Source of the DNA: Chloroflexia bacterium
GTDB lineage: Bacteria; Chloroflexota; Chloroflexia; DTKN01
Length of the DNA stretch: 64,000 bases
Direction: 5' to 3'
Assembly: GCA_016928715.1 (NCBI GenBank)
Contig: JAFGKG010000112.1
Coordinates: 969-64,968 of the forward strand
The position numbers and the translations under genes are program-made. Within the stretch, counting starts at the first letter, position 1. Each line of letters starts with the position of its first letter. Shown here in pieces: positions 4,233 through 29,953 of this stretch. The notes under the pieces were generated by a model. It was not told the origin of the DNA and searched no databases. It saw only the letters and a list, made by a program, of their open reading frames with translations.

Positions 4233-5072
4233 ATGCCCCGACGCAGAAAAGCGAAACAGGCCCCCTCCGACCCGGAGGCGACCGTACAGAAAAAGACCTG
4301 GCGGACCTGGTTGCGGCGCTCTCGAGGACGTCCGGTAGAACGCGCCGACCGGGTGGGAGCGGACCTGCCGGACCAGGGCGAGATGACCCTGCTGGAGCAC
4401 CTGCAGGAACTGCGCCGGCGCCTGATCGTCTCTTTGGTGGCCGTGGGCATCGGCACGGTGGTAGGGCTCGTCTTTACAGAGCGGTTGATGTACTGGCTGC
4501 TGCGCCTCTTGGAAAGCGTGCCCGGGGTCACGCCGCAGGCCATCGAGATTCCCGAGAAATTCACCACCAGCATGCGCCTGGCGCTGACGGTGGGGGTGGC
4601 GCTGGCCATGCCGGTCATTGTCTACCAGCTCTGGAAATTCCTGCAGCCCGGCCTCTATGCCCACGAGCAGCGCTACATCGTCATCGGCCTGCCCCTGGTC
4701 AGCCTGTTTTTCGCCTCCGGGGTAGCCTTTGCCTATTACGTCGCGCTGCCGGCGGCGATCAACTTTTTGCTGCGCTTTGGCAGCGAGCAGATCCTGACCC
4801 AGCCCCGGTTGGCCACATATCTCTCCTTTGTCTCCACCCTGCTTTTCTGGAGCGGCGTCAGCTTTGAGACGCCCATCTTTATCTTTTTCCTGGCCAAGCT
4901 GGGCGTGGTGGATTGGAAAAAGCTGCTCGGTTGGTGGAAATACGCCCTGCTGGCGGCCTTTGTGCTGGGGGCGGTGATCACCCCAACGCCGGACCCGCTG
5001 AATATGAGTCTCGTCGCCCTGCCGCTCTATTTGTTGTACTGGCTGGGGATCCTGCTGGCCCGCTTTGCCTGA
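4233..5072 (+). CDS. tatC: twin-arginine translocase subunit TatC
   Basis: The conserved TatC core starts at MTLLEHLQELRRRL (Met at 4383) and has 6 predicted TM segments. A basic 50-aa N-terminal extension applies if the ATG at 4233 is used, so the start is uncertain. Confidence 0.85.
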   Translation: MPRRRKAKQAPSDPEATVQKKTWRTWLRRSRGRPVERADRVGADLPDQGEMTLLEHLQELRRRLIVSLVAVGIGTVVGLVFTERLMYWLLRLLESVPGVTPQAIEIPEKFTTSMRLALTVGVALAMPVIVYQLWKFLQPGLYAHEQRYIVIGLPLVSLFFASGVAFAYYVALPAAINFLLRFGSEQILTQPRLATYLSFVSTLLFWSGVSFETPIFIFFLAKLGVVDWKKLLGWWKYALLAAFVLGAVITPTPDPLNMSLVALPLYLLYWLGILLARFA

Positions 5073-5079
5073 GACCTCC

Positions 5080-5108
5080 TTGACAAGCCTGGGACTGTTT
5101 GCTACAAT
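5080..5108 (+). promoter_or_regulatory. promoter of Clp-REC/YbjN operon (TTGACA-17-TACAAT)
   Basis: Hexamers at 5080..5085 and 5103..5108, with an exact 17-nt spacer. It lies just after the tatC stop. Confidence 0.7.
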
Positions 5109-5206
5109 CGGTCTGGGTTGCAAGAGAGCCGTGGCGCCCAAAGGATCTGTCGAGGCGTCCCCCATTTCAGAACTGGGGTGATTCCCCACCCGTGGAGGGA
5201 AACAAG

Positions 5207-7924
5207 GTGTTACGTGGTTACAATCCCAAAGCCCAAGAGGTCTGGCAAATTGCCAAGGCGCTGGCGTTCGACGCCCAGCGATCCCTTTCCCCGAGCGATC
5301 TGTGGTGGGCCTGCCTGACCACGATCCCGGAGGAGCACCGGAAGGAGTTGGGCCTGAGCCTCTCTCCGGAGAAACAAGAGCAGTTGGAGTCGCTGCGCCA
5401 GCGCCGCATCGAGGAGCGGGTCAGCGTCGTGCCGGCCGTGACCAAACTGGACCGCAACCTGAAAGAGATGTGCCGCGAGAGCGGTTCCCCCGCGGCGACC
5501 GTCTGGCACATGCTGCTGGGTCTGCTGGAGCAGCCGGACGAGGAGTTGAACCAGGTCTGGCAGACGATGGCGGTGGACCCGGAAAATTTGCGCCGACAGG
5601 TACGGGAGCAGATCGAGCAGTCCAAGCTGCCCTCCCGGCAGGTGCCCCTGCCCCAAGAAGCGCGGCGGGTGCTCAAGATGTTTACCCAGAACCTGACCGA
5701 AGCGGCGGCGCGGGGCGACCTGACCCCGGCCTACGAGCGGGAAAAAGAGCGGGCGGCGATCATTCGCACCCTGTTGCGCAAGAAAAAGCGCAACGTCGCC
5801 CTGGTGGGGCCGGCCGGCGTGGGCAAGACCAAGCTGGTCGAGGATCTGGCCCAACGCCTGCTGCAGGGGGAAGCCCCCCAACTGGCCGACTGCGAGGTCG
5901 TCTCCCTCAGCACGACGGCCCTGCGCGCCGGGGCCTCGATGCAGGGCGAGTTGGAGAGCCGCTTTGAGCAACTGCGCCAGGTGTTCGAGGATTACGGTGA
6001 CCGGCTCATCCTCTTTATCGACGAACTGCACGTGATTGTGGGCACGGCCCTGAGCAGCCAGTCGCTGGACCTGGCCAATGCCCTGAAACCGCTGCTGACC
6101 TCGGACCGCATCCGCTGCATTGGGGCCACGACCCAGCAGGAATTCATCCAATACGTCGAGCGGGACCGCGCCCTGGCCCGGCGTTTCCAGATGGTGGCGG
6201 TGCCCGAGCCCTCCAGGGCGGCGATGGAGCGCATCCTGGAGTCCGTGCGGCCCGAGTACGAAAACCACTATGGTCTGACCTATCCGCCCGAGACGCTCAA
6301 GACGATTCTGGACCTGGGCGACGTCTATCTGCCCAACCGCTACTACCCGGACAAGGCCCTGGACCTGTTGGACGAGGCCGGCGCTTGGCTGATCATGCAC
6401 GAGGGCGCAAGTGAGGAGCCGCGGCCCGTCCCGCCCGCGGCGGTCAAGGCGGTGCTCTCCGAGATCCTGCAGATTCCCTTGGAAGATCTGGACGAAACCG
6501 TCCTGCCGCAGTTAGCGCTGCAGTTGGGCGAGCGGATCGTCGGCCAGGACAAGGCCCTGAAGCAGATCCAGGACGCGCTCATTGCCGGCAGCGGGCGGAC
6601 CATGGTTTCCTCTCGGCCGCGGGCGGCCATGGCCTTTGTCGGCCTGCAGGGCTGTGGCAAGACCTTTGCTGCCCAGATGCTCACCGACGTGCTCTGCCAC
6701 AGCCGGCCGGCCTTTTTGGAGCTGGACCTGGACCAGATCGTGCGCGGCTACTGGCACGGCGGCGGGGCCGACTTTTTGCTGGGCCCCCGCCCGCCCTACG
6801 TGGGCTGGGAGCATGGCGGCGTGCTGACCAACCACGTCCTGGTGCACCCGCAGAGTGTGATCCTGGTCCGCGGCATCGAGCGGGCCCAGTCCGACGTGCA
6901 GCACCTCTTTGCCGGCATTCTGGATCGGGGGGAGGTGGAGGACGGCCGCGGGCAGCGCGTTACCTTCCGCGGGGTCGTGCTCATTTTCGCCTTTGAGAGC
7001 AAGCTGGCCGCGGATCGTTCGATTGGCTTTCTGCAGGCCGGTCGTGGTGGGCCGGTCGAGGTCGATTCCCTCAAGCTGCGGGACGAATTGGTGGAACAGG
7101 GCCTGCAACCGGCCCTGCTGCGGCGCATCGAGCACCTTGTTCCCTTCCAGCCGCTCTCTAACGAGGCGCTGCGGGAAATCGCCCGCCGCCGGCTGGAATC
7201 GTTCCGCCAGGAACTATACGAGCGCGAGGGCAAGGCCCTGGACGTCGAGGAGGATTTCCTGCCCCACCTGATCTCGCCCCAGGTCCACACGGCCTCCGAG
7301 GCCGAGCAGCAGGTGGAACAGCACGTCATCCTGGCCGTGAACGCGCTGCGCACCTCACCCGATTGGGCCAGTTGGAAGACCATCTGCCTGGATTGGGAAC
7401 AGGGCGTGGCCGTGGAGCCGCTGGTGCCCCGCGTCCTGGTGGTGGACGATCTGCCCGATTTCTTCCAAGAGTTGGAGCAGAGCTATGCCGAGTACCGCTG
7501 GTTGTACGCCTCGGACGGCGGGCAGGCCGCCCGGATCATCGAGGAGGAAGCCCCTCACCTGGTGATCATCGATACTTGTTTCAGCACCAGCAACGAGGCC
7601 GATGTCGGCGGGTTGGCGGTGCTGAAGGAACTCAAGAAGCGCTTTCCTGCCCAGCAGATCGTGCTGGTCACGGCCCAGGGCATGGACTTTCAGACGACGC
7701 GGGAGGCCTTTCGCGTGGGCGCCTACGACTATATCTGGAAGCCGCCGCAAGAGTCCGTGCTGCGCCAGTTGATCTCGGCCCTGGTGGCCCAGGAGGAGCA
7801 GCAGCGTCGCCTGGAGGTGCAGGACCAACTGCTGCGCGCCCAGTGGGAACGCCGGGTAGAGGCGGACGAACGCAACGTACGTATTACCTATCGCAAAGGA
7901 GGTGCGCCCGAGAAAAAGAGCTGA
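5207..7924 (+). CDS. Clp/Hsp100-like double AAA+ ATPase fused to a C-terminal response-regulator receiver domain
   Basis: GTG at 5207 lies 6 nt after GGAGGGA. The N-terminus is Clp_N-like. D1 has GPAGVGKT and LFIDELH. D2 has GLQGCGKT, but the Walker B position reads VILVRGIERA. An SIGF tripeptide sits at the ClpA IGL-loop position. The C-terminal REC has VVDD, IIDT, VTAQ and WKP. Confidence 0.85.
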   Translation: MLRGYNPKAQEVWQIAKALAFDAQRSLSPSDLWWACLTTIPEEHRKELGLSLSPEKQEQLESLRQRRIEERVSVVPAVTKLDRNLKEMCRESGSPAATVWHMLLGLLEQPDEELNQVWQTMAVDPENLRRQVREQIEQSKLPSRQVPLPQEARRVLKMFTQNLTEAAARGDLTPAYEREKERAAIIRTLLRKKKRNVALVGPAGVGKTKLVEDLAQRLLQGEAPQLADCEVVSLSTTALRAGASMQGELESRFEQLRQVFEDYGDRLILFIDELHVIVGTALSSQSLDLANALKPLLTSDRIRCIGATTQQEFIQYVERDRALARRFQMVAVPEPSRAAMERILESVRPEYENHYGLTYPPETLKTILDLGDVYLPNRYYPDKALDLLDEAGAWLIMHEGASEEPRPVPPAAVKAVLSEILQIPLEDLDETVLPQLALQLGERIVGQDKALKQIQDALIAGSGRTMVSSRPRAAMAFVGLQGCGKTFAAQMLTDVLCHSRPAFLELDLDQIVRGYWHGGGADFLLGPRPPYVGWEHGGVLTNHVLVHPQSVILVRGIERAQSDVQHLFAGILDRGEVEDGRGQRVTFRGVVLIFAFESKLAADRSIGFLQAGRGGPVEVDSLKLRDELVEQGLQPALLRRIEHLVPFQPLSNEALREIARRRLESFRQELYEREGKALDVEEDFLPHLISPQVHTASEAEQQVEQHVILAVNALRTSPDWASWKTICLDWEQGVAVEPLVPRVLVVDDLPDFFQELEQSYAEYRWLYASDGGQAARIIEEEAPHLVIIDTCFSTSNEADVGGLAVLKELKKRFPAQQIVLVTAQGMDFQTTREAFRVGAYDYIWKPPQESVLRQLISALVAQEEQQRRLEVQDQLLRAQWERRVEADERNVRITYRKGGAPEKKS

Positions 7925-7982
7925 ACCGCCGGTTTGCCCACGTTCGTCTGCCCCTGAGCAGGCGCTTTTAAAGGAGAATGCC

Positions 7983-8462
7983 ATGTCCGAAGTTACGATG
8001 GATGTCCTGAAACTATACCTGGAGCGGTTTGGTTGGTCCCAATACGATGCCAAGGACGAAGAGCAGGAACAAGAGGGCATTATCTACACCGGTTGGCGGT
8101 CCTCGGAAGAGGGGCCGGTCTATCGCATGACGATCGACCCCATGGCAGAAAAGAAATGTCTCTCCTTCAAGGTCCACCAGTTGGCCAAGGCCCCCAAGGA
8201 GGAAACGTCCGCCGACCGCCTGACCGGCCTGCTGATGGTCCTGGGGTGGGTCAACTATAGCATTATCCTGGGCAAGTTTGGCTACGACCACCGCGACGGC
8301 GAGGTGCGCTTTTCCGTCGATGTGCCCATCGACGTGAACGATTTCACCTACGAACAGTTCGCCCACGCTATGATTATCGCCATCCGCACGGTGGAGGAAT
8401 GGGCTTTGAAGCTGCAGGCCTACCTGGCCGGGGAAAAAGAACTCGGGGAACTGCTGGCCTGA
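7983..8462 (+). CDS. YbjN-like (putative sensory-transduction-regulator / T3SS-chaperone-like fold) protein, paralog 1
   Basis: ATG at 7983 lies 6 nt after AAGGAG. 159 aa. The family call rests on remembered YbjN-like pattern features, so it is moderately uncertain. It is a clear paralog of the next gene. Confidence 0.6.
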   Translation: MSEVTMDVLKLYLERFGWSQYDAKDEEQEQEGIIYTGWRSSEEGPVYRMTIDPMAEKKCLSFKVHQLAKAPKEETSADRLTGLLMVLGWVNYSIILGKFGYDHRDGEVRFSVDVPIDVNDFTYEQFAHAMIIAIRTVEEWALKLQAYLAGEKELGELLA

Positions 8463-8484
8463 CCCATTGACCAAGGAGTGACCG

Positions 8485-9072
8485 ATGCCATCCAATGTCA
8501 ACCTGGAAACCCTGAGCCAATACCTGGAGCGTTTCGGCTGGAAGCACTACCAAACCGCGGACGAGCCCGCCGAGCAAGAGGGTCTCATCCGTACCGGCTG
8601 GCGCGCCTCGGAAGGGCAGACCTACAGAATGGTGATCGACCCTATGGTCGAGAAAAACTGCCTTTCCTTTCGGGTGATCCAGGTTGCCATGGCGCCTTGG
8701 GATAGTACGCCCTCCGACCGGCTGAACGGCCTGTTGACCCTGCTCAACTGGGTCAATTACCGCATCATCCTGGGCAAATTTGGCTACGATGCCAGCGATG
8801 GGGAGGTCCGCTTCTCCATCGACGTACCCATCGACGAGAACGATTTCAGCTATGCCCAGTTCGAACACACCCTCCACGTCATTATCAACTCGATGCGCGA
8901 GTGGGATCCCCAGGTGCAGGCCGTGCTGTGCGGCGAAACACCCGTCCAGGATGTGCTGGTATCCAGTGCGCGCGAGAGCGGCGCCTCGGAAGATTTTATG
9001 CGGAAACTGACCGAGGCCCTGGAGAGGCGGGGCGACTGGTACGCCGAAGGGACGCCGCTGACCGAGATCTAG
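8485..9072 (+). CDS. YbjN-like protein, paralog 2 (with C-terminal acidic extension)
   Basis: 195 aa. It aligns along its length with 7983..8462 (YLERFGW, TGWR, YRM.IDPM.EK.CLSF, DRL.GLL, NWVNY.IILGKFGYD, DGEVRFS.DVPID.NDF). Confidence 0.6.
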   Translation: MPSNVNLETLSQYLERFGWKHYQTADEPAEQEGLIRTGWRASEGQTYRMVIDPMVEKNCLSFRVIQVAMAPWDSTPSDRLNGLLTLLNWVNYRIILGKFGYDASDGEVRFSIDVPIDENDFSYAQFEHTLHVIINSMREWDPQVQAVLCGETPVQDVLVSSARESGASEDFMRKLTEALERRGDWYAEGTPLTEI

Positions 9073-9131
9073 GGCTGGATGTAGGGGGACGGGTCATTCC
9101 TTACCCGCTGCTGTAAAAGCTGCAACCACAC

Positions 9132-9166
9132 CTTCCCGGAAGCTGCAGGCTTCCGGGAAGTTTTTT
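9132..9166 (+). terminator. intrinsic terminator of Clp-REC/YbjN operon
   Basis: Perfect 12-bp stem cttcccggaagc/gcttccgggaag, a 5-nt loop, then TTTTTT (9161..9166). Confidence 0.85.
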
Positions 9167-9180
9167 CGTAGAGGTCAAGC

Positions 9181-9309
9181 AATAACTTGCCGGTTTTGAC
9201 CGGCTAAAGCCTCGACTCCGCTCCGGGAAAGCGCGATCTTTTACGGGCCTTTTAGGAGTCGAGTCTTTAGCCGGTGACGGAGAACAGGCAGCAAAACCGG
9301 CAAGTTATT
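9181..9309. repeat. 129-nt two-tier inverted repeat (long hairpin element)
   Basis: The outer 18-bp stem is perfect (9181..9198 with 9292..9309). The inner 21-bp stem has 1 mismatch (9199..9219 with 9255..9275). The right arm covers the cyclase gene stop codon. Confidence 0.8.
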
Positions 9310-12300
9310 CTTTTACAGCGTCCAACGTTCTTTGCCAGTCGTGCACGATCTGTTGATTCCAGGGATTTCCCTGTACAAAGGAGCGCCGCAGACCTGGATC
9401 TTGGATCTCGGCGGCCATCTCCTGGAGCAGTTCGTGGGCGCGCTGGAGGTAGGGCCGGGCGGCCTGGAGTCCCTGCACCTGCCGCACGATGTGAAAGTGG
9501 TGGTGGTAGAGCTGGGGGATGTCGTCGACCCGCTGGCCATACGTTTGCAAAAAAGAAACCACCTCTTGGGATATCTCCAGGGCGTCCTGAGCCCGCCCCA
9601 GTTGGAGCAGGGCCAGGGCCTCGAAGGAACGGTAATGGAATGCGTCCACCTTTTGTCCGGCGCTGGAGGCCAGTTCGCTGGCCTGCCGGAAGTGCTCTAG
9701 TGCTGGCCCAGGCTGGCCTGACGCCAGCAGCACCCGGCCGAACAAGCCCTCCGCTTCGATGATAAAGTTCCGGTTCTGCACCTCGCGCAGCAGGGCCACG
9801 CTGCGTCGAGCGGCCTCCAGGGCCGGCCCCTCCTTGTGCCGGCGCAGGTGAGCGTGGCCCAGGACAAAGTGGACCATGCCCAGCATAAAAGTGTCGCCCG
9901 AACGCTCAAAAAAGGTGCGCGCCGGCTGAACGGTCTCGATAGTTTCCTCGGCCGCTCCCAGGGCCAGCAGGGCGATGCAAACGTTGATGCGTTGGACCGC
10001 CTCGTCCCGCGGCCGGCGCAGGGCTTTATAATGCTCGACGAGCTGTCGGTAGATCTGCAGTGCCCGCTCGTATTGGGTCTCGATCGAGAGATAGATGGTG
10101 CCCAATGTCCCCAGTGCGGTCGCTTCCCCCTGTGGATCCCGGCCGCGCTGAAAGCACTGGCGGGCGCGCTGCAAGGACTCGTGCATCCGCTCGATATCAT
10201 ACTGCAGCCAGTAAGCGCGGCAGATCGTGTTCCAACAGCGGCCGGCCAGGGAATCGTCCCCGCAGCGCTCGGCCAGGACCACAGCCTCCTCAAGCCGGGA
10301 GAGGCTGTCGCAGTATTGGCCCCAATCTAATAGCATGTGGCCCTGGTGGTACAGTACGTAGGCCTGGCGCTGCTCATCACCCTGGGCCAGCCAGGCCATC
10401 TCTTGCAGCACCCGCTCCTGCTCCTCGTGCCGGCCCAGTTGCTGCAGCACCCGTTCCAGGCGCTGTAAATAGTCCCAGTGCGCCTCGGCGTTGTCCTGGG
10501 GCAGCCAGGCCCGCGCCTGGCGATAGTACTCCAGGGCCTCCCGGTTGGAAAAAGCCCGCGCGGCCCGGTTCCCCGCCCGCATCAAATAGACCCAGGCCTT
10601 TTCCCCGTTGCCGCCCAGGTGGTAGTGATGGGCCAGTAAATCGGTGACTTGATCCAGCTCGTCGACGTGAACGTCCTCCAGGTAGCGGGCCAGGGCTTGG
10701 TGTAGGGCCCGGCGCTGGGAAAAAAGCAGGCTCTCGTAGGCTACCTCGCGGGTGATAATGTGCTTGAAGAAAAAGATCCGCTCCTGGGGCTGCTCCAGCA
10801 GCAGCAGGTCCACCCGCTCCAAGGCAGCTAGCTGGGACGACAACTCTGCCTCGTCGACCTCCAGCGGGTAGATTCCCTGCAATTGGCTATAGGGCACGGT
10901 GCGCCCAATGACCGAGGCGACCTTGAGGGTCAACTGGCTGCCCTCGTCCAATTGGTCCAGGCGGGCCTGCACCACGCCCTGTACGGTCTGGGGAACCTGG
11001 AGGTGCTCCAGGTCCCCCTGCACAATACAGCTCCCGTTCTGGGGAAGCAGGCGAATGCCGGCGTCCTGCAGGGTGTTTAGTATCTCTTCGATGAAAAAGG
11101 GATTGCCCTGGGCTCGTTCCAGCAGCTTGAGCAACTCTGGAGGCAGCCGGACGTGGGCCGGCAGGTCCAATCGCAGGCGGGCCAGGGCCTGACTGCCCGC
11201 CGGTGAAAGGGCGTGCAGGCGCAGGCTCTGGCTGTGAGGGAGCCCGGCCAGTTGGCGGTAGGGAGCGGGTTGGGGCTTGTCCAGGGGGCGGTGTATGGGA
11301 AGTACGAGGACGGGATGAGAGGCGATGTTGCGGGCGATGTAGAGGAGCAGCTCCAGGGAAGGTCCGTCCATCCAGTGGATGTCCTCGAAAAGCAGCAGGG
11401 TGGGCGCGACGCCGGCCTGGTGGCGCACGATGTCCAGGATCAGTCCAGAGAGATTGCGCTTTCGTTCGGGCCCCTGCAGGTGCTCGGTAAAGGGGTTATC
11501 CGGGATGGGCAGCCCCAGAATGTCCGCCAGCAGGGGCAGGCGCACCGACAGGTCCCCCGGCATAAAGGACAGGGCGGCTTTTAGGTGCTGCACGCGTTCC
11601 TGCGCCGGTCGGTCTGGGGCCAGCTCGAACATTGTGGCGAGCAGTTGCTGGAAGGGATGGTAGGGGCTGCCCATAGTGTAGGAGAGACTGTCCGCACTAT
11701 AGAGCTGCCCCCCGCGTCCGGCCCACCATCGCGCCACCTTGCCGGCCAGGCGGCTTTTGCCCACGCCGGCCTCGCCCTCCAGCAAGATCACCTGCCCTTT
11801 TCCCGCCAGGGCCTGCTGGGCCAGCTTTTGGATCTGCGCCCATTCCTGTTCCCTGCCCACCATTTCGTCCTGGTACAACTGCTCCCAGACGAGCGGGGCG
11901 CGGTTGTCCCTCTCCATAGCCTGGAGTTCGAACGTGGGCACGGCCTCTAGCTTGCCCTTGATCACGGTCCGGCCCAGCGGCCGAAACTGGCCCCGGCCGG
12001 ACACCGCGTGCTGCAGGCGGGCGCTGACCACGATCTGGCCCCAGGTTGCCCCCTCCATCAGCCGGGAGGCCAGGTTCATCTCGTCCCCGATGGCGGTGTA
12101 GGTCCAGCGCTCCACGCTTCCCAGGGGCCCGACGAAAACAAGGCCGCTGCTGATGCCGATGCGCTGGGAGGCCACCCCTAAATCGGCTGGCCGGATGCGT
12201 TCCTGCAGGTCCAGGGCGCAGTGCAGGGCCCGTTCCCCATCGTCCTCATGGGCGTTGGGGGCGCCGAAAAGGATGAGCAGCAGGCTGCCCTTGTCCCCGA

Positions 12301-13219
12301 CCTCGACGTCGTTGAGCCGGCCGTCGTAACGCTGCACGATCGCTTGCACGGCGGCTACATAGGATTGCAGTTGCCTCCCCGCCTGCAGGTCCGGTCCCTG
12401 GAAACCGACAAAGAGGATCACCACCCGGCGGTGCTCGCCGACAAAGGCCCGACCGGCCGTCTGGATGCGCCGCAGCAGCACCGGCGGCAAAAAGGCGGCC
12501 AGTTCCGGCCGGCGCTCCGGGGGGACCAGGGTCTCGGCTGCGGCCGCAGACGCGGGTGGGGGAGCGGGGTCCCCCGCCGGTGCCCGGGCACAGCCGCCCG
12601 GCAGCGGTTGGAGCGGGACCTCCGCCGGCAGCAGCGCCTGCACCTGCCGGTCGAGTACAATCTCCCCCGGCCGGGCCCGCAGCAGCGCCTCCACTGCCGC
12701 GGCCCGGCTGGGGCCGGCCAACAGGTGCAGCAGGCCGGTCTCGACGCTGCCGAGCACGGCGGTCACTGTTTCTCCCGCGCCCAGGCCGATGCGGACCTGC
12801 AGGGGAAAGGTTCCCTGGGTGGTGTGCAGCACGGCCGTCTGGCCGACGTACTGCTGGATGGACTGGGCGCAGGCCAGCGCCCGCCGGCCAGCTGGTTCCA
12901 GTTGCTTCCCTTCGCTATCCAGGGGCATAAAGAGCGCCGTCATGGCGTCCCCGCTGAACTGGGCAGTGTCCCCGCCGTAGAGACGGCAGAGTTCGATGAT
13001 CTGGGAAAAGTGCTGGTTGAGCAGGCTGGAGAGTTCCTCGGCGCCCTGCCGGCCGGCCTGGGCCAGCGCCTCGGCCAGCGGGGTAAAGCCCGATATGTCC
13101 ACGATCAGCACGACCGCGGCAAAGCGCTGCTGCCAGCCGGGCAGCGGCCCCTTGGCGGCCTGCCGCAGCAGGTATTCGGGCAGATAGGCCAGACAGGCTC
13201 GTTCGACTCGGTCTTTCAT
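9305..13219 (-). CDS. tandem class III adenylate/guanylate cyclase - AAA (STAND-like) ATPase - TPR signalling protein
   Basis: 1304 aa. Cyclase domain 1 has VLIVDISGFTPLAE and FSGDAMTALF. Domain 2 has VILFVGFQGPD, VGDKGSLLLILFGAP and IGDEMNLASRL. The P-loop is LLEGEAGVGKSRL. The C-terminal half is rich in TPR-like repeats. Confidence 0.9.
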   Translation of the reverse strand: MKDRVERACLAYLPEYLLRQAAKGPLPGWQQRFAAVVLIVDISGFTPLAEALAQAGRQGAEELSSLLNQHFSQIIELCRLYGGDTAQFSGDAMTALFMPLDSEGKQLEPAGRRALACAQSIQQYVGQTAVLHTTQGTFPLQVRIGLGAGETVTAVLGSVETGLLHLLAGPSRAAAVEALLRARPGEIVLDRQVQALLPAEVPLQPLPGGCARAPAGDPAPPPASAAAAETLVPPERRPELAAFLPPVLLRRIQTAGRAFVGEHRRVVILFVGFQGPDLQAGRQLQSYVAAVQAIVQRYDGRLNDVEVGDKGSLLLILFGAPNAHEDDGERALHCALDLQERIRPADLGVASQRIGISSGLVFVGPLGSVERWTYTAIGDEMNLASRLMEGATWGQIVVSARLQHAVSGRGQFRPLGRTVIKGKLEAVPTFELQAMERDNRAPLVWEQLYQDEMVGREQEWAQIQKLAQQALAGKGQVILLEGEAGVGKSRLAGKVARWWAGRGGQLYSADSLSYTMGSPYHPFQQLLATMFELAPDRPAQERVQHLKAALSFMPGDLSVRLPLLADILGLPIPDNPFTEHLQGPERKRNLSGLILDIVRHQAGVAPTLLLFEDIHWMDGPSLELLLYIARNIASHPVLVLPIHRPLDKPQPAPYRQLAGLPHSQSLRLHALSPAGSQALARLRLDLPAHVRLPPELLKLLERAQGNPFFIEEILNTLQDAGIRLLPQNGSCIVQGDLEHLQVPQTVQGVVQARLDQLDEGSQLTLKVASVIGRTVPYSQLQGIYPLEVDEAELSSQLAALERVDLLLLEQPQERIFFFKHIITREVAYESLLFSQRRALHQALARYLEDVHVDELDQVTDLLAHHYHLGGNGEKAWVYLMRAGNRAARAFSNREALEYYRQARAWLPQDNAEAHWDYLQRLERVLQQLGRHEEQERVLQEMAWLAQGDEQRQAYVLYHQGHMLLDWGQYCDSLSRLEEAVVLAERCGDDSLAGRCWNTICRAYWLQYDIERMHESLQRARQCFQRGRDPQGEATALGTLGTIYLSIETQYERALQIYRQLVEHYKALRRPRDEAVQRINVCIALLALGAAEETIETVQPARTFFERSGDTFMLGMVHFVLGHAHLRRHKEGPALEAARRSVALLREVQNRNFIIEAEGLFGRVLLASGQPGPALEHFRQASELASSAGQKVDAFHYRSFEALALLQLGRAQDALEISQEVVSFLQTYGQRVDDIPQLYHHHFHIVRQVQGLQAARPYLQRAHELLQEMAAEIQDPGLRRSFVQGNPWNQQIVHDWQRTLDAVKE

Positions 13220-20323: not shown

Positions 20324-20516
20324 ACGTACGATTGGGCAATGTGGGTAGGACAGAGCCGCCCGCCCCGAGTACGGTTTCCTTAGTACCTTACCACCGTATT
20401 CTTGCCCAAATAACAAGGATTTCAACCACAAAGGGCACATTAGTTCTTTACAGGTCTTGACATTAAGCGGCTTTGGAAAGCTTGTCGACACCTCCGATAG
20501 GAAAAAGGATAGGGGC

Positions 20517-22298
20517 ATGGACGGACAGGTCCTGGGAAATCGATACGAACTCGAGTCGGTCGCCGGTCAGGGGGGCATGGCCCTGGTCTACCGGGCTCGT
20601 GACCGGATACTGGGCCGGCCGGTGGCCATCAAGGTGCTGCGCCCCGAATACAGCAGCAGCGAGACCTTTGTCAAACGCTTTCAGCGTGAGGCCCGCGCTG
20701 CGGCCAATCTGACCCATCCTAATATTGTCTCCGTCTATGACGTTGGCCAGGAGGGGGATCAGCACTACTTTGTGATGGAGTACATCCAGGGGCCGACCCT
20801 CAAGCAGGTGATCCGCGATCGCGCCCCCCTGCCGGTGGACATGGCCCTGCGCATCGCCGAGTCGGTCTGCGCGGCGCTCGAGTATGCCCACCGCCAGGGC
20901 ATTATCCACCGGGACATCAAGCCGCAGAACATCCTGCTGCGGGAGGATGCCGACGTGGTCAAGGTGACCGATTTTGGCATTGCCCAGAGCATCCTGGACC
21001 CCGAGACGACGGCCGAGCGGCTGGCGATGGGTACGGTCAAGTACATCAGCCCGGAGCAGGCCCGGGGTGTAGACGTGCACCCCCAATCGGACCTCTATTC
21101 TCTGGGCGTTGTGCTGTACGAAATGCTCACGGGGCGACAGCCCTTTGAGGGGGATTCGCCGGTCAGTATTGCCCTGCAGCACGTGGAGGCGGAACCGCTG
21201 CCGCCCCGTCGGCTCAACCCCGCGCTGCCCCCAAACGTGGAGGGCATTGTGCTGCGAGCCCTGGCCAAGGACCCCCGCGCCCGCTTTGACAGCGCCCGGG
21301 ATATGCGCATGGCTCTGGAATACTACCGACTGGCCGGATCCGAGATGACCGGCCTGATTCCCCAGCCCGGTGCGGTCTCTCCGAGACCGGCCCCCGCGCG
21401 GGTGCAGGCCCCGGCGGCGGTCCCCCGGCGCGTTCCACCGCCCGAACAAAAGCGGCGCGGTTTGAACTATCCCCTGGTGTTTGTCCTGCTGCTGGTCATT
21501 GCGGGCGGCATCTATGGCCTGACACGACTGGTGCCGCAGATCTGGCCCTCCAACGGCAACGGAAATGGCCCCACTCAACCCACACCGCAGCCCACAGCCA
21601 CCGTCGAGCCCACTGCTCCGCCCGAACTGCCTGTGCCCGACCTGACCGGCATGCTGCCGGCCGAGGCCCGCGCCAAGCTGGAGGAAATGGGGTTCATCTA
21701 CCAGGAGGGCAAAGCCCGCTTTGATCCCTACAGCGAGCCCGGCCACGTCGTCGACCAGGACCCGCCCTATGGGGAGTACATGCCGCAGGGCACCGTGGTG
21801 ACGGTGACCCTGTGCAGCGAGCCCGGCCTGGCTCGGATCCCCCGAGTGGTGGACATGAGCTTTGCCGGGGCGCGCCTGACCCTGGAGCAGGCCGGCTTTC
21901 GAGTGCAGAAGGAGGGTGTTGGCTGTGCCGGCGAGCCGCTCGACCAGGTGGTGCGGCAGGAACCCCGCGGCGGCATCCAGGAAATCCAGGGCATCACCAT
22001 CACCCTCTATGTGAGCATTGGCGAGGAGGCCGTGCTGCCCGAGTTGCTGCGGGTGCCCCTGAGCCAGGCCCAACAGCGGGCGCAGGAGGCCGGCCTGTCC
22101 TGGGGCTATCCCAACCCACAGACCCAGGAGGACATGCCGCCGGGTGTGGACATTGACGACCTGGGCGCGCCGGGACAGGTCATCAGCTTTGTCATCGAGT
22201 ACGACGGCCAGCGCAGGACCAGCGGCGAGCTGCAGCCCGGCGACCGGGTGCCCTGCGGCGCCTGGGTCTATGCGGCCTACTATGCCACGAAACCCTAG
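20517..22298 (+). CDS. Ser/Thr protein kinase with C-terminal PASTA repeats (PknB-like)
   Basis: Kinase motifs GQGGMALVY, AIKVL, HRDIKPQNIL, DFGIA and SPEQA. One TM segment (LVFVLLLVIAGGIYGL). About three PASTA-like repeats. ATG at 20517. Confidence 0.9.
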   Translation: MDGQVLGNRYELESVAGQGGMALVYRARDRILGRPVAIKVLRPEYSSSETFVKRFQREARAAANLTHPNIVSVYDVGQEGDQHYFVMEYIQGPTLKQVIRDRAPLPVDMALRIAESVCAALEYAHRQGIIHRDIKPQNILLREDADVVKVTDFGIAQSILDPETTAERLAMGTVKYISPEQARGVDVHPQSDLYSLGVVLYEMLTGRQPFEGDSPVSIALQHVEAEPLPPRRLNPALPPNVEGIVLRALAKDPRARFDSARDMRMALEYYRLAGSEMTGLIPQPGAVSPRPAPARVQAPAAVPRRVPPPEQKRRGLNYPLVFVLLLVIAGGIYGLTRLVPQIWPSNGNGNGPTQPTPQPTATVEPTAPPELPVPDLTGMLPAEARAKLEEMGFIYQEGKARFDPYSEPGHVVDQDPPYGEYMPQGTVVTVTLCSEPGLARIPRVVDMSFAGARLTLEQAGFRVQKEGVGCAGEPLDQVVRQEPRGGIQEIQGITITLYVSIGEEAVLPELLRVPLSQAQQRAQEAGLSWGYPNPQTQEDMPPGVDIDDLGAPGQVISFVIEYDGQRRTSGELQPGDRVPCGAWVYAAYYATKP

Positions 22299-25519: not shown

Positions 25520-27499
25520 ATGGCAAAAATAAAGAGTATCGACCCTGCCGTCAGCGAGATGCTGGAGCAGGCTGAAAAAGAGGGGCTGTCCACGGCGTTC
25601 AGCCGAGCGGAGGACATGAAACCTTGCCCCATCGGGCACGTGGGCCGCTGCTGCAAGCACTGCCACATGGGCCCCTGCCGCCTGATGAAACCGGGCCAGA
25701 CCGGTGTTTGTGGCGCCACCATCGAGACGGTGACGGCCCGCAACCTGGTGCGGATGATCGCCGGCGGCGCTTCGGCCCACTCGGACCACGGGCGCGACTT
25801 GGCCCTGACCCTGTTGGCCGTGGCCGAGGGCGAGGCCCCGGACTATCGCATCCGTGACAAGGGCAAGCTGCTGCTGATGGCCGAGTACCTGGGCGTTCCC
25901 ATCAAGGGGCGCGAGATCCTCGAGATCGCCCAAGACGTCGGCAGCAAGGCCCTGTCGCAGTTTGGCCAGCAGACGGGTGAACTTCTCAGTGTGCAGCGCG
26001 CGCCCAAGCCGCGCCAGGAGATCTGGCGCCGCCTGGGGATGGTCCCCCGCGGCATTGACCGCGAGGTGGTCGAGGTCATGCACCGCACCCACGTGGGCAA
26101 CGACCAGGATCACGAGAGCCTGCTCAAGGCCGGTCTGCGCTGTGCTTTGGCCGATGGCTGGGGCGGCTCCATGCTGGCCACCGACCTGACCGATGTCCTC
26201 TTTGGTACGCCCAGTCCGCTGTCCGCCCGCTCCAACCTAGGCATCCTCTCCGATGACGAGGTCAATCTCATCGTCCACGGCCACGAGCCGACCCTTTCCG
26301 AGATGATTGCAGTGGCCTGTATGGATCCCGAGATGATCGAGTACGCCAAGAGCAAGGGCGCCAAGGGCATCAACCTGGCCGGTATCTGCTGCACGGCCAA
26401 CGAGGTGCTGATGCGCCAGGGCGTGGGCACGATTGGCAATTTTCTCAGCCAAGAGTTGGCCGTAATGACCGGCGCGATCGAATTGATGGTGGTGGACATC
26501 CAGTGCATCATGGAAGCCCTGTCCCCCCTGTGCGAGCGCTACCACACCTCCCTGGTGACCACCTCGCCCAAGGTCCACATCCACGGGGCGACGCACATTG
26601 GCTTTGACGAGCACCGCGCTCTGGACATTGCCAAACAGATTGTGCGCATGGCCTGCGACAACTATCCCAAGCGGGGCAAAACGCACATTCCCCAGTTCCA
26701 GACCGAGCTGGTGGCCGGTTTCTCCCACGAGTACCTCAACTACTTGATGGGCGGCTACTACCGTGGCTCCTTCCGTCCGCTGAACGATGCCATCATGACC
26801 GGGCGACTGCGCGGCGTGGCCGGCGTGGTTGGCTGCAACAACCCGCGCACCAGCAGCCACGACGCAGCCCACGATTACGTCACGCGCGAATTCATCAAGA
26901 ACGATATCCTGGTCGTGCAGACCGGCTGCGGGGCCATCTCCGCGGCCAAGTTTGGCCTGCTCGCGCCGGAGGCGGCGATGGAACTGGCCGGCCCCGGCCT
27001 GCGCGAGATCTGCGAGACCCTGGGCATCCCGCCCGTGCTGCACCTGGGGTCCTGTGTGGACAACAGCCGGATCCTCACCACCCTGGCCCAGATGGCCAAT
27101 GAGGGTGGCCTGGGTACGGACATCAGCGACATCCCGGGGGTGGGCCTGGCGCCGGAGTGGATGAGCGAGAAGGCTATTTCCATTGGCTGCTACTTTGTCG
27201 CCTCCGGTGTCTATACCATTATGGGGGGCAAGAGCCCGGTAGAGGCCAGTGAAGTCGTAAGCGAGTACATCAGCAAGGTGTGGGAAGAGCAGTTGGGTGG
27301 CAAGTACGAGTTTATCGAGGAACCCGAGGAAATGGTGGCCCGCTCTTTGGCCCATATCGATGCCAAGCGACAGGCCCTGGGTTTGCCCGACTATGACCCC
27401 ACTCGCTATGGCGCCAGCGGCGACGGCATGCTGCTGCGCTACCTGGAAGCGGTGGAAAAGGGCGAGCCGGCCAGCCTCTACAGCACCAAAGGGCTGTAG
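25520..27499 (+). CDS. cooS: anaerobic carbon-monoxide dehydrogenase catalytic subunit
   Basis: N-terminal Cys cluster CPIGHVGRCCKHCHMGPCRL....GVCGA. The length and remaining conserved Cys/His pattern are typical of Ni,Fe-CODH. Confidence 0.95.
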   Translation: MAKIKSIDPAVSEMLEQAEKEGLSTAFSRAEDMKPCPIGHVGRCCKHCHMGPCRLMKPGQTGVCGATIETVTARNLVRMIAGGASAHSDHGRDLALTLLAVAEGEAPDYRIRDKGKLLLMAEYLGVPIKGREILEIAQDVGSKALSQFGQQTGELLSVQRAPKPRQEIWRRLGMVPRGIDREVVEVMHRTHVGNDQDHESLLKAGLRCALADGWGGSMLATDLTDVLFGTPSPLSARSNLGILSDDEVNLIVHGHEPTLSEMIAVACMDPEMIEYAKSKGAKGINLAGICCTANEVLMRQGVGTIGNFLSQELAVMTGAIELMVVDIQCIMEALSPLCERYHTSLVTTSPKVHIHGATHIGFDEHRALDIAKQIVRMACDNYPKRGKTHIPQFQTELVAGFSHEYLNYLMGGYYRGSFRPLNDAIMTGRLRGVAGVVGCNNPRTSSHDAAHDYVTREFIKNDILVVQTGCGAISAAKFGLLAPEAAMELAGPGLREICETLGIPPVLHLGSCVDNSRILTTLAQMANEGGLGTDISDIPGVGLAPEWMSEKAISIGCYFVASGVYTIMGGKSPVEASEVVSEYISKVWEEQLGGKYEFIEEPEEMVARSLAHIDAKRQALGLPDYDPTRYGASGDGMLLRYLEAVEKGEPASLYSTKGL

Positions 27500-27532
27500 T
27501 CGGTCCAGATAGAACTAGAAGGAGGAGATTCA

Positions 27533-29791
27533 ATGTCCCGTTATATCTCGACGGCAGTGATCCGTGGGGCCAATGCCATTGTCAAAGAGGCCGAAGGTAT
27601 GCTGGCCCAGGCGATCGCCGAATATGGACCGGATACGCCGGTGGCCTTTACCAATACCGCGTACTACCTTCCGGTGACCTTTGGTCTGACCGGCATGCAG
27701 GTAGAAAATCTGGGGGATATGGCCGAGGTGCTGCAGTACGCCCGCAGTATGCTGTACGCCCTGCCCAAGGAACAAACCTGGCTGCCCTACCTGGGCGAAG
27801 CCCTGGACAGCGGCATCGCTACCCTTTTGGCCGAGGAGGTCATTATGGGGATCCGCTTTGTGCGCGGGGAGCAGCCGGAAAAGATCCCCGGCCTCGAGCT
27901 GGTCGGCACCAGCGCGCCGGCGGAGAGCGGCTATGCCAACGGCCCCATCGACGATATCCAGCTGCGCGCCTGGGGCATCCAGTTGGTGGACGGGCGCATG
28001 CCCGGCTTTGCCGCCATCGCCGGTGCGGCCAAGTCCAACGAGGTCGCCGTAGAGATCGTGCGCCAGTTGCAGCAGCGCAATATCCTGGTCTTTTTGTGCG
28101 GCAACGTCAATGGCCGCAGCATCATCCACCAGTTGATCGAGGAAGGCGTCGAGATGGGCTACGATACCTACATCGTGCCTTTTGGCACCGATACCATCTC
28201 GGCCATCTATCCGCTGGGGTTTGCGACCCGCTCTGCCCTGACCTTTGGCGGCAAAAAGGGCGGCCAGGCCCGCGAGATCCTGCTCTACAACAAGTACCGC
28301 GTCTTTGCCTTCGTCCTGGCCCTGGGCGAAGTAGACGACCTCAAGTACGCCACCGCCGCCGGGGCCATCTCTTACGGCTTTCCCACCATCGCCGATACGA
28401 TCATTCCCCAGGTGCTGCCCACCGGCATCACCCAGTACGAGCACGTCATCTCGATGCCCTTTGACGACATCGAGGGCAAGGATGACATCGAACGGGCCAA
28501 AAGGATGGTCCAGAAGGCCATCGAGGTCCGCGGCGTCAAGCTCAAGATCACCGATGTGCCCATCCCGGTGCCCTACGGCTCGGCCTTTGAGGGCGAGCGC
28601 GTGCGTCGGGCCGATATGCGCATCGAGTTTGGCGGCAAGAACGCGCGCTGCTTCGAGTACCTGTACATGGTCGATTTGGAGGATGTGGAGGACGGCAAGG
28701 TCGAGATCGTCGGCCCCGGTTTTGAAGAGATCGAGGACGGCGGCTATATGGACATGGGCATCGTCGTGGAGGTGGCCGGCCGCAAGATGCAGACCGACTT
28801 TGAGCCGGTCCTGGAGCGCCAGATGCACTACTTTATCAACGGCGCTTCGGGCATCCAGCACATCGGGCAGCGCGACATTACCTGGATTCGCCTGTCCAAG
28901 GCCGCCTACGAAAAGGGCTTTAACCTGGAGCACTTTGGCAAGATCCTGCACGCCCGCTTCCACGCCGACTTTGGGGCCATTGTGGACAAGGTCCAGGTGA
29001 CCCTCTATACCAAGCCCGAGTTGGTCGAGGAATGGCTGGAAAAGGCGCGCGAGGCATACGACTATCGCAACCGCCGCCTGGCCGACCTAACCGACGAGGC
29101 CGTGGAAGAGTTTTACTCCTGCACCCTCTGCCAGAGCTTTGCGCCCAACCACGTCTGCGTGGTCTCGCCGGAACGGCTGGGCCTCTGTGGGGCCTATAAC
29201 TGGCTGGACTGCAAGGCCTCCTTCCAGATCAACCCCACCGGTCCCAATCAGCCCATCCTGAAGGGCCGCTGCCTGGACCCGATCAAGGGCTACTATGACA
29301 GGGTCAACGAGTTCGTCCAGCAGGCCTCCCACGGCTCGGTGGAAGAGGTCAGCATGTACTCGATCATCGAGAACCCCATGACCGCCTGTGGCTGCTTTGA
29401 GTGTATCGCCATGCTCATCCCCGAGGCCAATGGGGTCATGGTCGTCTCACGCGAGGATCCCAGCATGACCCCGGCCGGGATGACCTTTTCCACGCTGGCC
29501 GGCGTGGCCGGCGGCGGACTGCAGACCCCCGGCGTGATGGGCGTGGGCAAGTACTACCTGCTCAGCAAAAAGTTCATCTCTGCCGACGGCGGGTTCAAGC
29601 GCATCGTCTGGATGTCCTCGGTCCTCAAAGAGATGATGGCCGATGAGCTCAAAGAGATAGCCATCCGTGAGGGCGATCCCGACCTGATCGACAAGATCGC
29701 CGACGAGCGTTACGCCACCACGGTGGAGGAACTGCTGGGCTATCTGGAGGAAAAGGAACACCCGGCTTTGGCGATGGATGCGATCTTTTAG
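27533..29791 (+). CDS. acsB: acetyl-CoA synthase (CO-methylating acetyl-CoA synthase, alpha/AcsB)
   Basis: A-cluster motifs CTLCQSFAPNHVCVVSPERLGLCGA and ACGCFECI. 752 aa bacterial-type protein with a CODH-interacting N-terminal domain. Confidence 0.95.
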   Translation: MSRYISTAVIRGANAIVKEAEGMLAQAIAEYGPDTPVAFTNTAYYLPVTFGLTGMQVENLGDMAEVLQYARSMLYALPKEQTWLPYLGEALDSGIATLLAEEVIMGIRFVRGEQPEKIPGLELVGTSAPAESGYANGPIDDIQLRAWGIQLVDGRMPGFAAIAGAAKSNEVAVEIVRQLQQRNILVFLCGNVNGRSIIHQLIEEGVEMGYDTYIVPFGTDTISAIYPLGFATRSALTFGGKKGGQAREILLYNKYRVFAFVLALGEVDDLKYATAAGAISYGFPTIADTIIPQVLPTGITQYEHVISMPFDDIEGKDDIERAKRMVQKAIEVRGVKLKITDVPIPVPYGSAFEGERVRRADMRIEFGGKNARCFEYLYMVDLEDVEDGKVEIVGPGFEEIEDGGYMDMGIVVEVAGRKMQTDFEPVLERQMHYFINGASGIQHIGQRDITWIRLSKAAYEKGFNLEHFGKILHARFHADFGAIVDKVQVTLYTKPELVEEWLEKAREAYDYRNRRLADLTDEAVEEFYSCTLCQSFAPNHVCVVSPERLGLCGAYNWLDCKASFQINPTGPNQPILKGRCLDPIKGYYDRVNEFVQQASHGSVEEVSMYSIIENPMTACGCFECIAMLIPEANGVMVVSREDPSMTPAGMTFSTLAGVAGGGLQTPGVMGVGKYYLLSKKFISADGGFKRIVWMSSVLKEMMADELKEIAIREGDPDLIDKIADERYATTVEELLGYLEEKEHPALAMDAIF

Positions 29792-29809
29792 TTTTGGCTC
29801 GATTTGGGT

Positions 29810-29834
29810 GGCCCCGGTCTGTTTGGCCGGGGCC
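29810..29834 (+). terminator. hairpin after acsB (possible partial terminator/processing site)
   Basis: ggccccgg (29810..29817) pairs with ccggggcc (29827..29834). A T-run (tttttt) follows about 10 nt downstream, so this is not a textbook terminator. Confidence 0.35.
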
Positions 29835-29887
29835 GCCTTGTGCATTTTTTGTGTGCGGCCACGAGTCCGGCGGGTTTTGGGGCCCAC

Positions 29888-29916
29888 TTGCCTAAACCAC
29901 AGTTTCAGGGTAAAAT
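29888..29916 (+). promoter_or_regulatory. internal promoter for CBS-acsD-acsC (TTGCCT-17-TAAAAT)
   Basis: Hexamers at 29888..29893 and 29911..29916. Confidence 0.55.
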
Positions 29917-29953
29917 AGACAAGGTTTGTAGGAGCCGAAACAAGGAGAAGGCC

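Follow-up and report, generated by a model that had tools for sequence, protein, structure and literature searches.

Our analyses showed that a 64,000-nucleotide (nt) stretch of a Chloroflexia bacterium genome (assembly GCA_016928715.1, contig JAFGKG010000112.1, positions 969 to 64,968 of the forward strand; the window in the following) encodes a Clp/Hsp100-type double AAA+ protein of 905 amino acids (aa) that ends in a CheY-like receiver domain (REC). The gene, which we refer to as clp-REC, is followed by two genes for YbjN-type proteins. Together they represent a conserved and unstudied operon architecture, for which the sequence features make a phosphorylation-controlled Clp machine a plausible functional model. 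An earlier note on this DNA, drawn up from the sequence without database searches, had described an unfoldase, possibly ClpP-coupled, that is gated by aspartyl phosphorylation. This remains the best reading and is partly supported, but the note under-called the second AAA+ ring (D2), the pore loop, the partner and the C-terminal tail. The features of the unit are as follows, in window coordinates.

5080..5108, + strand: predicted sigma70-like promoter; TTGACA, 17-nt spacer, TACAAT, extended -10 TG; 11 of 12 consensus matches
5207..7924, + strand: clp-REC gene; 905 aa, Clp/Hsp100-type double AAA+ protein with C-terminal receiver
5207..5626, + strand: helical, Clp_N-like N-domain, aa 1-140; eight helices with block predicted local distance difference test (pLDDT) values of 80-93 in the AlphaFold2 model
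5684..6529, + strand: D1 AAA+ module with lid, aa 160-441; both Walker motifs (A 201-208, B 270-275) and the Arg pair at 325/326 intact
5933..5947, + strand: D1 pore loop ASMQG, aa 243-247; Met245 is the equivalent of ClpA Tyr259 in the alignment to ClpA
6548..7144, + strand: D2 large domain, predicted pseudo-ATPase, aa 448-646; P-loop 479-486 and pore-loop Tyr531 kept
6869..6874, + strand: degenerate D2 Walker B; Arg555-Gly556 instead of Asp-Glu
7019..7030, + strand: SIGF loop, aa 605-608; flexible, aligned with the ClpP-docking IGL loop of ClpA
7160..7399, + strand: diverged D2-small domain, aa 652-731; sensor-2 GAR replaced by HTASEAEQ at 694-701
7430..7750, + strand: receiver, aa 742-848; D747, D748, phospho-acceptor D789 (codon 7571-7573), T822 and K845
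7751..7921, + strand: C-terminal extension; long helix that ends at aa 877 and beta-hairpin at 881-896, from family alignment and AlphaFold2 model
7983..8462, + strand: ybjN-1; 159 aa, without linker and C-terminal motif; Shine-Dalgarno AAGGAG; PF10722 with 26.2 bits against a cut-off of 22
8485..9072, + strand: ybjN-2; 195 aa, charged linker, C-terminus PLTEI; strong Shine-Dalgarno; PF10722 with 37.7 bits against a cut-off of 22
9132..9170, + strand: predicted intrinsic terminator by consensus match; 13-pair stem with 8 G-C pairs, T-run behind it; closes the three-gene unit

Domain architecture of the clp-REC product

The gene lies in an uninterrupted open reading frame (ORF; 5099..7924, + strand). 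Its start is the GTG at 5207, which has a Shine-Dalgarno sequence (GGAGGG) 7 nt to its 5' side and matches the start of the family homologues with their equivalent M-x-x-G-Y-D. A start at TTG 5099 (941 aa) was ruled out because it falls inside the predicted promoter and the homologues begin at the position of GTG 5207. This promoter sits between the tatC stop (5072) and the clp-REC start. It is predicted by consensus match only and is the sole such site in 4900-9400, where 0.6 would be expected by chance.

In a Pfam scan the protein matched AAA (198-327, E 3e-14), AAA_lid_9 (340-403), AAA_2 (471-642, E 5e-22) and Response_reg (PF00072, 743-856, E 6e-13, 49.3 bits against a cut-off of 30.2). 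With its two tandem AAA+ modules, AAA plus AAA_lid_9 and then AAA_2, the product is a Clp-fold protein of the double-ring class. Structure prediction agrees with this assignment: in the AlphaFold2 model (66-sequence alignment, mean pLDDT 83.5), the N-domain spans residues 1-140, D1 160-335, its lid 337-441, D2 448-646, D2-small 652-731 and REC 742-848, followed by a helix to 877 and a beta-hairpin at 881-896. Among solved structures, Foldseek ranked chains of ClpC-ClpP, ClpC1P1P2 and ClpAP first, with a target template modelling score (TM-score) of about 0.8 across about 575 residues.

The architecture of six elements that the earlier note had read from GTG 5207 onward is hence borne out by the reading frame, the Pfam matches, the motif positions and the homologues. 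Each motif it quoted was found where it had been placed: GPAGVGKT at 201-208, FIDELH at 270-275, GLQGCGKT at 479-486, VRGIE at 554-558, SIGF at 605-608, VVDD at 745-748, IIDT at 787-790, VTAQ at 821-824 and WKPP at 844-847. Two of the six elements need qualification. The Clp_N-like N-terminus gave a marginal match of one Clp_N repeat (88-134, 20.4 bits against a cut-off of 20.7), although the model shows a confident helical N-domain. The D2-small domain has no ClpB_D2-small match in the Pfam scan, but appears in the model as a small alpha/beta domain at 652-731. At the C-terminus, the profile hidden Markov model scan and the five strands and five helices that the model places at 742-848 both support the receiver fold. 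A long coiled-coil M-domain had been reported as missing, and indeed the alignment with ClpA contains no insertion of that size and the model has short helices alone between D1 and D2.

A recurrent family in Armatimonadota

Beyond the window protein, 36 clusters (P0002-P0037) with the same collinear architecture were obtained from a search across 5.8 billion proteins. They are 879-916 aa long, share 40-72% identity with the window protein at a query cover of at least 95%, and all but one carry PF00072. The clusters stem from JGI, ENA, NCBI and Logan assemblies, and every named source is a member of the Armatimonadota (Fimbriimonadales, 'bacterium HR15' or Armatimonadetes bacterium). With one genome per GTDB species, the D2 plus REC arrangement was found in Armatimonadota metagenome-assembled genomes alone (loci L008-L013), including Ca. 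Fervidibacter sinensis. A profile search of 1.84 billion representatives at 50% identity yielded four full-length representatives, fragments and one distant collinear protein, P0198. The Clp-REC family is rare and limited to one lineage, and it is real and under selection. Its public annotation is automatic, reading 'ClpA / ActR-RegA family response regulator' or 'AAA family ATPase'.

An assembly artefact or a decaying pseudogene that joins a Clp ATPase to an unrelated response regulator might be suspected, since the window stems from a single assembly and the degenerate D2 motifs could suggest decay. Yet more than 35 clusters, drawn from all four assembly sources, contain this fusion in collinear form, the substitutions are themselves conserved (R555 in 36/37, G556 in 35/37, E/D597 in 37/37; here and below, such counts refer to the window protein and the 36 homologue clusters), and the uninterrupted frame has its own promoter, Shine-Dalgarno sequence and terminator. 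Recurrence across assemblies and the conserved substitutions refute this explanation, whose probability we consider negligible. The survey of other genomes thus establishes as genuine a fusion that the earlier note could only describe from one sequence.

P0198 (loci L091/L092, uncultured) is likewise a Clp-REC fusion of 905 aa, collinear with the window protein at 31% identity. It features a canonical D2 with Walker B DE, sensor-1 N and sensor-2 GAR, and its D1 pore reads VYRG. Judged by these motifs, P0198 looks like a non-degenerate form of the fusion. Since a receiver is here fused to an intact D2, fusion of the receiver and degeneration of D2 are separable.

N-domain and D1 ring

In the N-domain, all family members share A16, K17, A20, R25 and D31, and the N-domain of ClpA gives a weak local alignment with this region (phmmer, PDB 1ksf). 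D1 is the best-conserved domain, with 64% identity to distant family members, and in the same phmmer alignment it is collinear with E. coli ClpA and free of an M-domain insertion. Its residues K207, D272, E273, R325 and R326 occur in 37/37 each. At the pore position the family has Val in 16 members, Met in six, Tyr in six, Ala in three, Leu in three and another residue in three (n = 37). By these residues, D1 is catalytically intact and usually lacks the pore-loop Tyr. The intact D1 of the earlier note therefore holds for the catalytic residues, but the replaced Tyr, Met in the window protein, complicates a simple unfoldase picture.

A conserved pseudo-ATPase ring with a GF loop

The Walker B of D2, ILVRGIERA, aligns on LLLDEIEKA of ClpA (phmmer, PDB 1ksf). 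Arg is found at the first degenerate position in 36/37 and Gly at the second in 35/37; REC-less relatives and canonical references have D-E there, apart from one relative with E-E. The sensor-1 Asn position is Glu or Asp in 37/37 (aa 597), the Arg-finger position is variable in the family (Arg in the window protein), and the sensor-2 GAR is absent from the family alignment. D2 thus does not carry the catalytic set of Walker B Asp-Glu, sensor-1 Asn, Arg finger and sensor-2 Arg, and of its nucleotide motifs only the P-loop is retained (G484 in 37/37, K485 in 36/37). The pore-loop Tyr531 is kept in 36/37, and the segment around it, RPPYVGWERGG-LTNHV, is with 65% identity among the most conserved of the protein.

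As far as motifs can tell, D2 is a conserved pseudo-ATPase ring. Because the substitutions are themselves conserved, they point to a selected state rather than to decay, and because the P-loop is kept, D2 probably still binds nucleotide as a structural ring. The intact P-loop and the RG Walker B had both been recognized correctly; the loss is larger than assumed, as it extends to sensor-1, sensor-2 and, family-wide, the Arg finger.

Further downstream, RSIGFLQ aligns on KSIGLIH of ClpA (phmmer, PDB 1ksf), which is the IGL loop. G and F of this GF loop are each found in 35/37 and are also kept in REC-less relatives. In the AlphaFold2 model, residues 605-612 have a pLDDT below 50. The last AAA+ module hence contains an [ILV]-G-[FL] tripeptide within a loop that is flexible, and alignment and conservation confirm that SIGF occupies the position of the ClpA IGL loop, as previously proposed.

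Receiver and C-terminal extension

The receiver retains the acidic pair (D747 in 37/37, D748 in 36/37), the phospho-acceptor (D789, 35/37), the Thr or Ser at 822 (37/37) and the Lys or Arg at 845 (36/37), and is therefore predicted to be phospho-competent, in agreement with the complete receiver noted earlier. Its nearest relatives among receivers are of the NtrC1/NtrX type (NCBIfam, sequence matches). About 45 conserved residues follow the receiver, namely the long helix, with 44% identity, and the hairpin, a tail that had gone unnoticed; the extreme C-terminus of the protein is not conserved.

Two further observations concern this module. The beta3-alpha3 loop of the receiver (residues 783-802, nt 7553-7612) is about five residues longer than usual, and beside the acceptor Asp789 it contains an invariant His784 and Cys791 and a near-invariant Asp799. 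In Ca. Thermosaccharophagus tengchongensis (locus L014, 5944-6501), a stand-alone ORF of 185 aa is 48% identical to window residues 738-901 and may correspond to a split or free form of the regulatory module made up of receiver and tail.

Co-transcribed YbjN partner genes

The co-transcribed YbjN partner genes at 7983-9072, absent from the earlier note, are part of the Clp-REC system. According to the promoter, Shine-Dalgarno and terminator signals, clp-REC, ybjN-1 and ybjN-2 (5080-9170) are predicted to be one transcription unit; an Rfam scan of 5000-9400 gave no match. The model of YbjN-2 (pLDDT 88) has the fold of type III secretion chaperones, with DR_1245, ExsC, CesT and SycE as top structural matches. 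Proteins of the YbjN/type III secretion chaperone superfamily are regarded as peptide-binding chaperones and are known to bind partner proteins via extended peptides (PMC9503650, PMC5398634, PMC3575483).

A YbjN gene adjoins clp-REC in 11 of the 12 family loci examined, the window included, so that the pairing statistics rest on about a dozen loci. The copy is complete in L001, L002/L003, L004, L005 (here upstream), L006, L008, L009, L012, L013 and the window, and L011 has a YbjN fragment beside a frameshifted gene. The window YbjN copies share 48-60% identity with these partners; for the ATPase, identities in the same loci are 41-48%, so that the partner is the better conserved of the two. 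The partner family comprises 74 clusters, and all named ones are from Armatimonadota. Judged by the relatives of ATPase and partner, the operon appears to be that of an Armatimonadota-type bacterium.

In its long form, a conserved core (about 150 aa) is followed by a charged and variable linker (about 40 aa) and by a conserved extreme C-terminus, [PD]-L-[TEKH]-E-[VIL]-COOH (in short L-x-E-[VI]; PLTEI in the window). Tail-less copies occur in close relatives (P0131, P0136 and P0148), and in the clade of the window a long and a tail-less copy are consistently found on one contig (P0124/P0136, P0125/P0131).

YbjN-type genes are also found beside other Clp ATPases. In an Armatimonadota genome (L007) and in Thiocystis minor (L088), a YbjN-like gene is located two genes downstream of a REC-less Clp relative that is about 800 aa long and has a canonical D2; these partners, at L007 10733-11293 and L088 7738-8292, end in -MEV and -PEI. 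On a 3.8-Mb contig (L090, 10499-14134), YbjN/TY-Chap1 genes lie just upstream of a canonical Clp ATPase, and P0198 has a YbjN-like ORF two genes upstream. The presence of YbjN/TY-Chap genes beside REC-less Clp ATPases hints at a general Clp-YbjN partnership. Since partners of REC-less ATPases carry the tail motif as well, its receptor is to be expected in the common body of N-domain, D1 and D2 and not in the receiver. In the searchable literature we found no description of a functional link between YbjN and Clp and no paper that holds both 'YbjN' and 'ClpA'.

Proposed mechanism and alternatives

We propose that Clp-REC is a phospho-regulated, probably ClpP-coupled and D1-driven unfoldase with a dedicated YbjN-type adaptor or client, a reading that in our judgement could equally well prove right or wrong. 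Clp-REC would probably assemble into a stacked double-ring hexamer like ClpA or ClpC, in which the D1 ring alone hydrolyses ATP. The D2 ring would then serve as a nucleotide-binding structural ring that lines the channel with its Tyr and presents [IL]GF loops to ClpP. A histidine kinase encoded elsewhere may phosphorylate Asp789, and receiver and helix-hairpin tail would thereby switch ring assembly or activity; the analogy to NtrC1-type control is drawn from the nearest relatives of the receiver, which are of that type. Unfolding or degradation might in this way come under direct two-component control, a job done in trans for ClpXP by RssB and CpdR. With its dimeric type III secretion chaperone fold, YbjN would most likely act in the style of SspB, as an adaptor that binds a client by an extended segment and tethers it to the ATPase; alternatively, it may be a regulated client. 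A motor driven by D1 only should be a weak unfoldase, which suits clients that a YbjN-type chaperone hands over partly unfolded. NSF is a precedent for a non-hydrolysing D2 ring, and ClpA variants with only D1 active process only low-stability substrates.

Several findings weigh against this proposal. The D1 pore position is V, M, A or L in 28/37 family members and Tyr in 6/37. With the pore Tyr mostly lost from D1 and held by a ring incapable of hydrolysis, processive translocation is not assured. The GF loop could be an inherited remnant. Neither the window nor any of the five related loci whose genes were listed showed a linked kinase or clpP gene. In the receiver, Arg replaces the Lys in eight family members, and one member, P0032, is without the acceptor Asp. 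Finally, L010 has no YbjN gene within 6 kb of clp-REC.

Clp-REC might be a ClpP-independent remodelling ATPase controlled by phosphorylation, in which D1 strips clients from YbjN or loads them and the GF loop is vestigial or otherwise used, by analogy to type III secretion ATPases that dissociate chaperone-effector complexes. A dead D2 combined with a mostly missing D1 pore Tyr does not look well adapted to processive unfolding, the fold of the partner is that of type III secretion chaperones, and no clpP is linked in the window or the related loci whose genes were listed, all of which would fit a remodeller. We nevertheless regard it as somewhat unlikely: the GF loop, kept in 35/37 and in REC-less relatives, is flexible and has the exact position of the ClpA IGL loop, the best structural matches are the ClpP-docking ClpC and ClpA, and the D2 pore Tyr region, as the most conserved segment, argues for threading through the lower ring. 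Alternatively, YbjN could be a regulated substrate or an inhibitor or anti-adaptor, with L-x-E-[VI] as an ssrA-like degron or a plug; receiver phosphorylation would then decide over the destruction of YbjN, and so over release or silencing of its cargo. This agrees with an extreme C-terminus that is conserved behind a variable linker and with the tail-less second copy in the clade of the window, and overproduction of E. coli YbjN is reported to stabilise an unstable temperature-sensitive protein (PMC3181261, PMC9503650). However, an SspB-type tether would account just as well for a folded domain joined by a linker to a terminal peptide, and we hold the substrate or inhibitor role to be unlikely; otherwise it is compatible with the phospho-regulated unfoldase.

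A role in conflict or anti-phage defence was also considered, as related REC-less Clp and YbjN pairs lie near STAND/WD40, trypsin, HSP70 and HipA-type genes in the neighbourhoods of L088 and L089, and there is a weak partial match to the Dodola DolB model. PADLOC, however, returned only partial matches to the AAA core (DolB 45.6 bits, 76 residues) and none for either YbjN copy, and the neighbours of the REC-fused family are housekeeping genes that vary between loci. This makes a defence function very improbable.

Returning to the phospho-regulated unfoldase, we may tentatively extend it by a possible, if doubtful, generalization: the YbjN/type III secretion chaperone-like superfamily may include dedicated SspB-style adaptors, tethered via C-terminal L-x-E-[VI], of one clade of Clp unfoldases, and in Armatimonadota this module may have evolved into a receiver-gated split-motor device for converting two-component signals directly into proteolysis, in which D1 burns ATP without a grip Tyr and D2 keeps the grip and the ClpP dock.

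If the proposed mechanism is correct, Clp-REC would be the first among Clp/Hsp100 machines to contain a two-component receiver of its own. Unfolding or degradation would then respond to a kinase signal with neither a transcription step nor a separate adaptor, such as RssB or CpdR, in between. The pseudo-ATPase D2 and the Tyr-poor D1 would constitute an experiment of nature on how the rings of double-ring AAA+ motors specialise. The long-orphan YbjN family would gain a concrete, testable biochemical partner, in a Clp-YbjN pairing that reaches REC-less relatives in other phyla. Armatimonadota, a phylum with very little experimental biology, would have a lineage-specific regulator of proteostasis.

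Genomic surroundings

None of the 39 further window ORFs scanned against Pfam encodes a histidine kinase, ClpP or a proteasome component, and the statement of the earlier note that the window lacks a histidine kinase therefore stands. The neighbours of clp-REC vary, with tatC and xthA in the window, HSP20 in L006, a Mg-chelatase/ComM-like ATPase in L002 and L005, and ETF elsewhere. In L004 (9540-12924; Fimbriimonadales, GCA_026003115.1), the Clp-REC/YbjN pair directly precedes a Pup-ligase-like gene, UBact and two proteasome subunits, and in L002 Prok-E2/ThiF (E1-like) genes and a tricorn-like protease lie upstream. These neighbours may reflect a proteostasis theme, with an inconsistent pattern. 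The proteasome/UBact system was set aside as a general partner because it occurs in L004 alone among the listed loci and the extreme C-terminus of the ATPase is not conserved.

Adjacent to the operon, a very stable nested long hairpin of about 145 nt (9174-9316; RNA minimum free energy -74.1 kcal/mol, z-score -7.0) occupies the space that separates the operon terminator from the end of a convergent gene for a 1304-aa protein. It is present as a single copy in the window and has no Rfam match. The 1304-aa protein (9305-13219, - strand) contains two adenylate/guanylate cyclase domains, an AAA_16 (STAND-like) NTPase and TPR repeats and gives weak matches to Pycsar cyclase models; its gene is convergent with the operon and not conserved beside clp-REC elsewhere. 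A DUF6935 gene (1553-2119, - strand) lies about 3 kb from clp-REC in the window, and another (L091, 12431-12997) about 1.7 kb from P0198. Its presence near both Clp-REC genes may be coincidence or shared regional ancestry.

Two other signalling genes of the window are unlinked to the operon, namely a dCache-HAMP-STAS sensor without a kinase domain (49631-51211, - strand) and a PASTA-domain Ser/Thr protein kinase (20457-22298, + strand). A CODH/acetyl-CoA synthase cluster, the carbonyl branch of the Wood-Ljungdahl pathway, is found at 25520-32738 with Prismane/CODH, ACS beta subunit, a CBS protein and two CdhD-type subunits. Upstream of the prfB ORF (37056-37991), the classical programmed +1 frameshift site of release factor 2 is present at 36951-36965 (GGAGG-cat-CTT-TGA-C), and the PCRF match of this ORF starts only at profile position 29.

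Comparison with known systems

In the searchable literature we found no description of a receiver-fused Clp ATPase; only receivers acting in trans, RssB and CpdR, were returned. The cut-offs of known Clp equivalogs were missed as well; the protein is Clp/Hsp100-like but none of the named subfamilies, and the earlier note had likewise not recognised the architecture as a described Clp family. Scores were 363.9 against 993.15 bits for TIGR02639 and 294.6 against 1350 for PRK11034 in the case of ClpA, and 346 against 1232 for TIGR03346 in the case of ClpB/Hsp104, where in addition the M-domain-sized insertion is lacking and the GF loop is present. ClpV/TssH had the top NCBIfam E-value, but was rejected with 373 against 885 bits for TIGR03345, and type VI secretion genes were missing both from the window and from those related loci whose genes were listed. 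A ClpC-type M-domain is not present either: Pfam gave no UVR match and the model has lid helices alone at 337-441. From the equivalog scores, the M-domain and the D2 catalytic motifs it follows that Clp-REC is not a member of the ClpA, ClpB, ClpC or ClpV equivalogs.

In ClpA, D2 is the main motor, and a small dedicated adaptor gene, clpS, adjoins clpA. Among solved structures, E. coli ClpA was the best phmmer match (PDB 1ksf, E 1.6e-87, aligned at 139-683), and ClpAP chains reached target TM-scores of 0.73-0.82 against the Clp-REC model in Foldseek. Both proteins (ClpAP; PDB 1ksf, 6w1z) share two AAA+ modules, the absence of an M-domain and a flexible [IL]G[FL] loop at the same position of D2; the Clp_N-like N-domain of Clp-REC, with its marginal Clp_N match, would be a further common feature. 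In contrast to ClpA, Clp-REC lacks Walker B, sensor-1 and sensor-2 of D2, its D1 pore reads SMQ instead of KYR, a receiver and tail are added, and the partner has a YbjN fold instead of being ClpS.

The activity and assembly of ClpC depend on an adaptor. ClpC and ClpC1 with MecA-type adaptors (PDB 9rai, 9gi1, 8xoo, 9if4) are the top structural matches to Clp-REC and dock to ClpP via the GF loop. Clp-REC differs from them by its inactive D2 and by the lack of M-domain and UVR; its control appears to come from the fused receiver, whereas ClpC employs M-domain contacts.

With regard to adaptors, RssB and CpdR are free response regulators that serve ClpXP (PMC7226468, PMC8119881). In both, whether the Clp machine processes a client depends on the phosphorylation state of the receiver, as we propose for Clp-REC. 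They are, however, separate proteins that deliver substrates to ClpX, whereas in Clp-REC the receiver is fused and YbjN is the candidate adaptor. In the ClpXP adaptor SspB, a substrate-binding domain that forms a dimer is connected by a flexible linker to a short, conserved peptide at the C-terminus, which serves as the tether. YbjN-2 shares this layout of domain, linker and peptide, although the folds are unrelated and binding of the YbjN tail is putative. By PF10722 and fold, the partners are members of the group of YbjN proteins and class I chaperones of type III secretion (DR_1245, PDB 4h5b; AmyR, ExsC, CesT, SycE), from which their subfamily is set apart by the linker and the L-x-E-[VI] tail; a secretion system is absent from the window.

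For the receiver, NtrC1, DctD and NtrX (PDB 1ny5, 1zy2, 5m7n) are the closest relatives. In these proteins, a receiver on the same polypeptide is known to control the assembly of an AAA+ ring, via the helix after alpha5, and the Clp-REC model likewise has a long conserved helix after the receiver. Their receiver is N-terminal, though, their single sigma54-activator module has a GAFTGA loop, and their output is transcription and not unfolding. Clp-REC gave no significant Sigma54_activat match in Pfam, and NtrC-type NCBIfam matches cover the receiver only. The P0198 lineage likewise combines a Clp-REC fusion with a nearby YbjN-like gene, and differs by its canonical D2 and its D1 pore VYRG.

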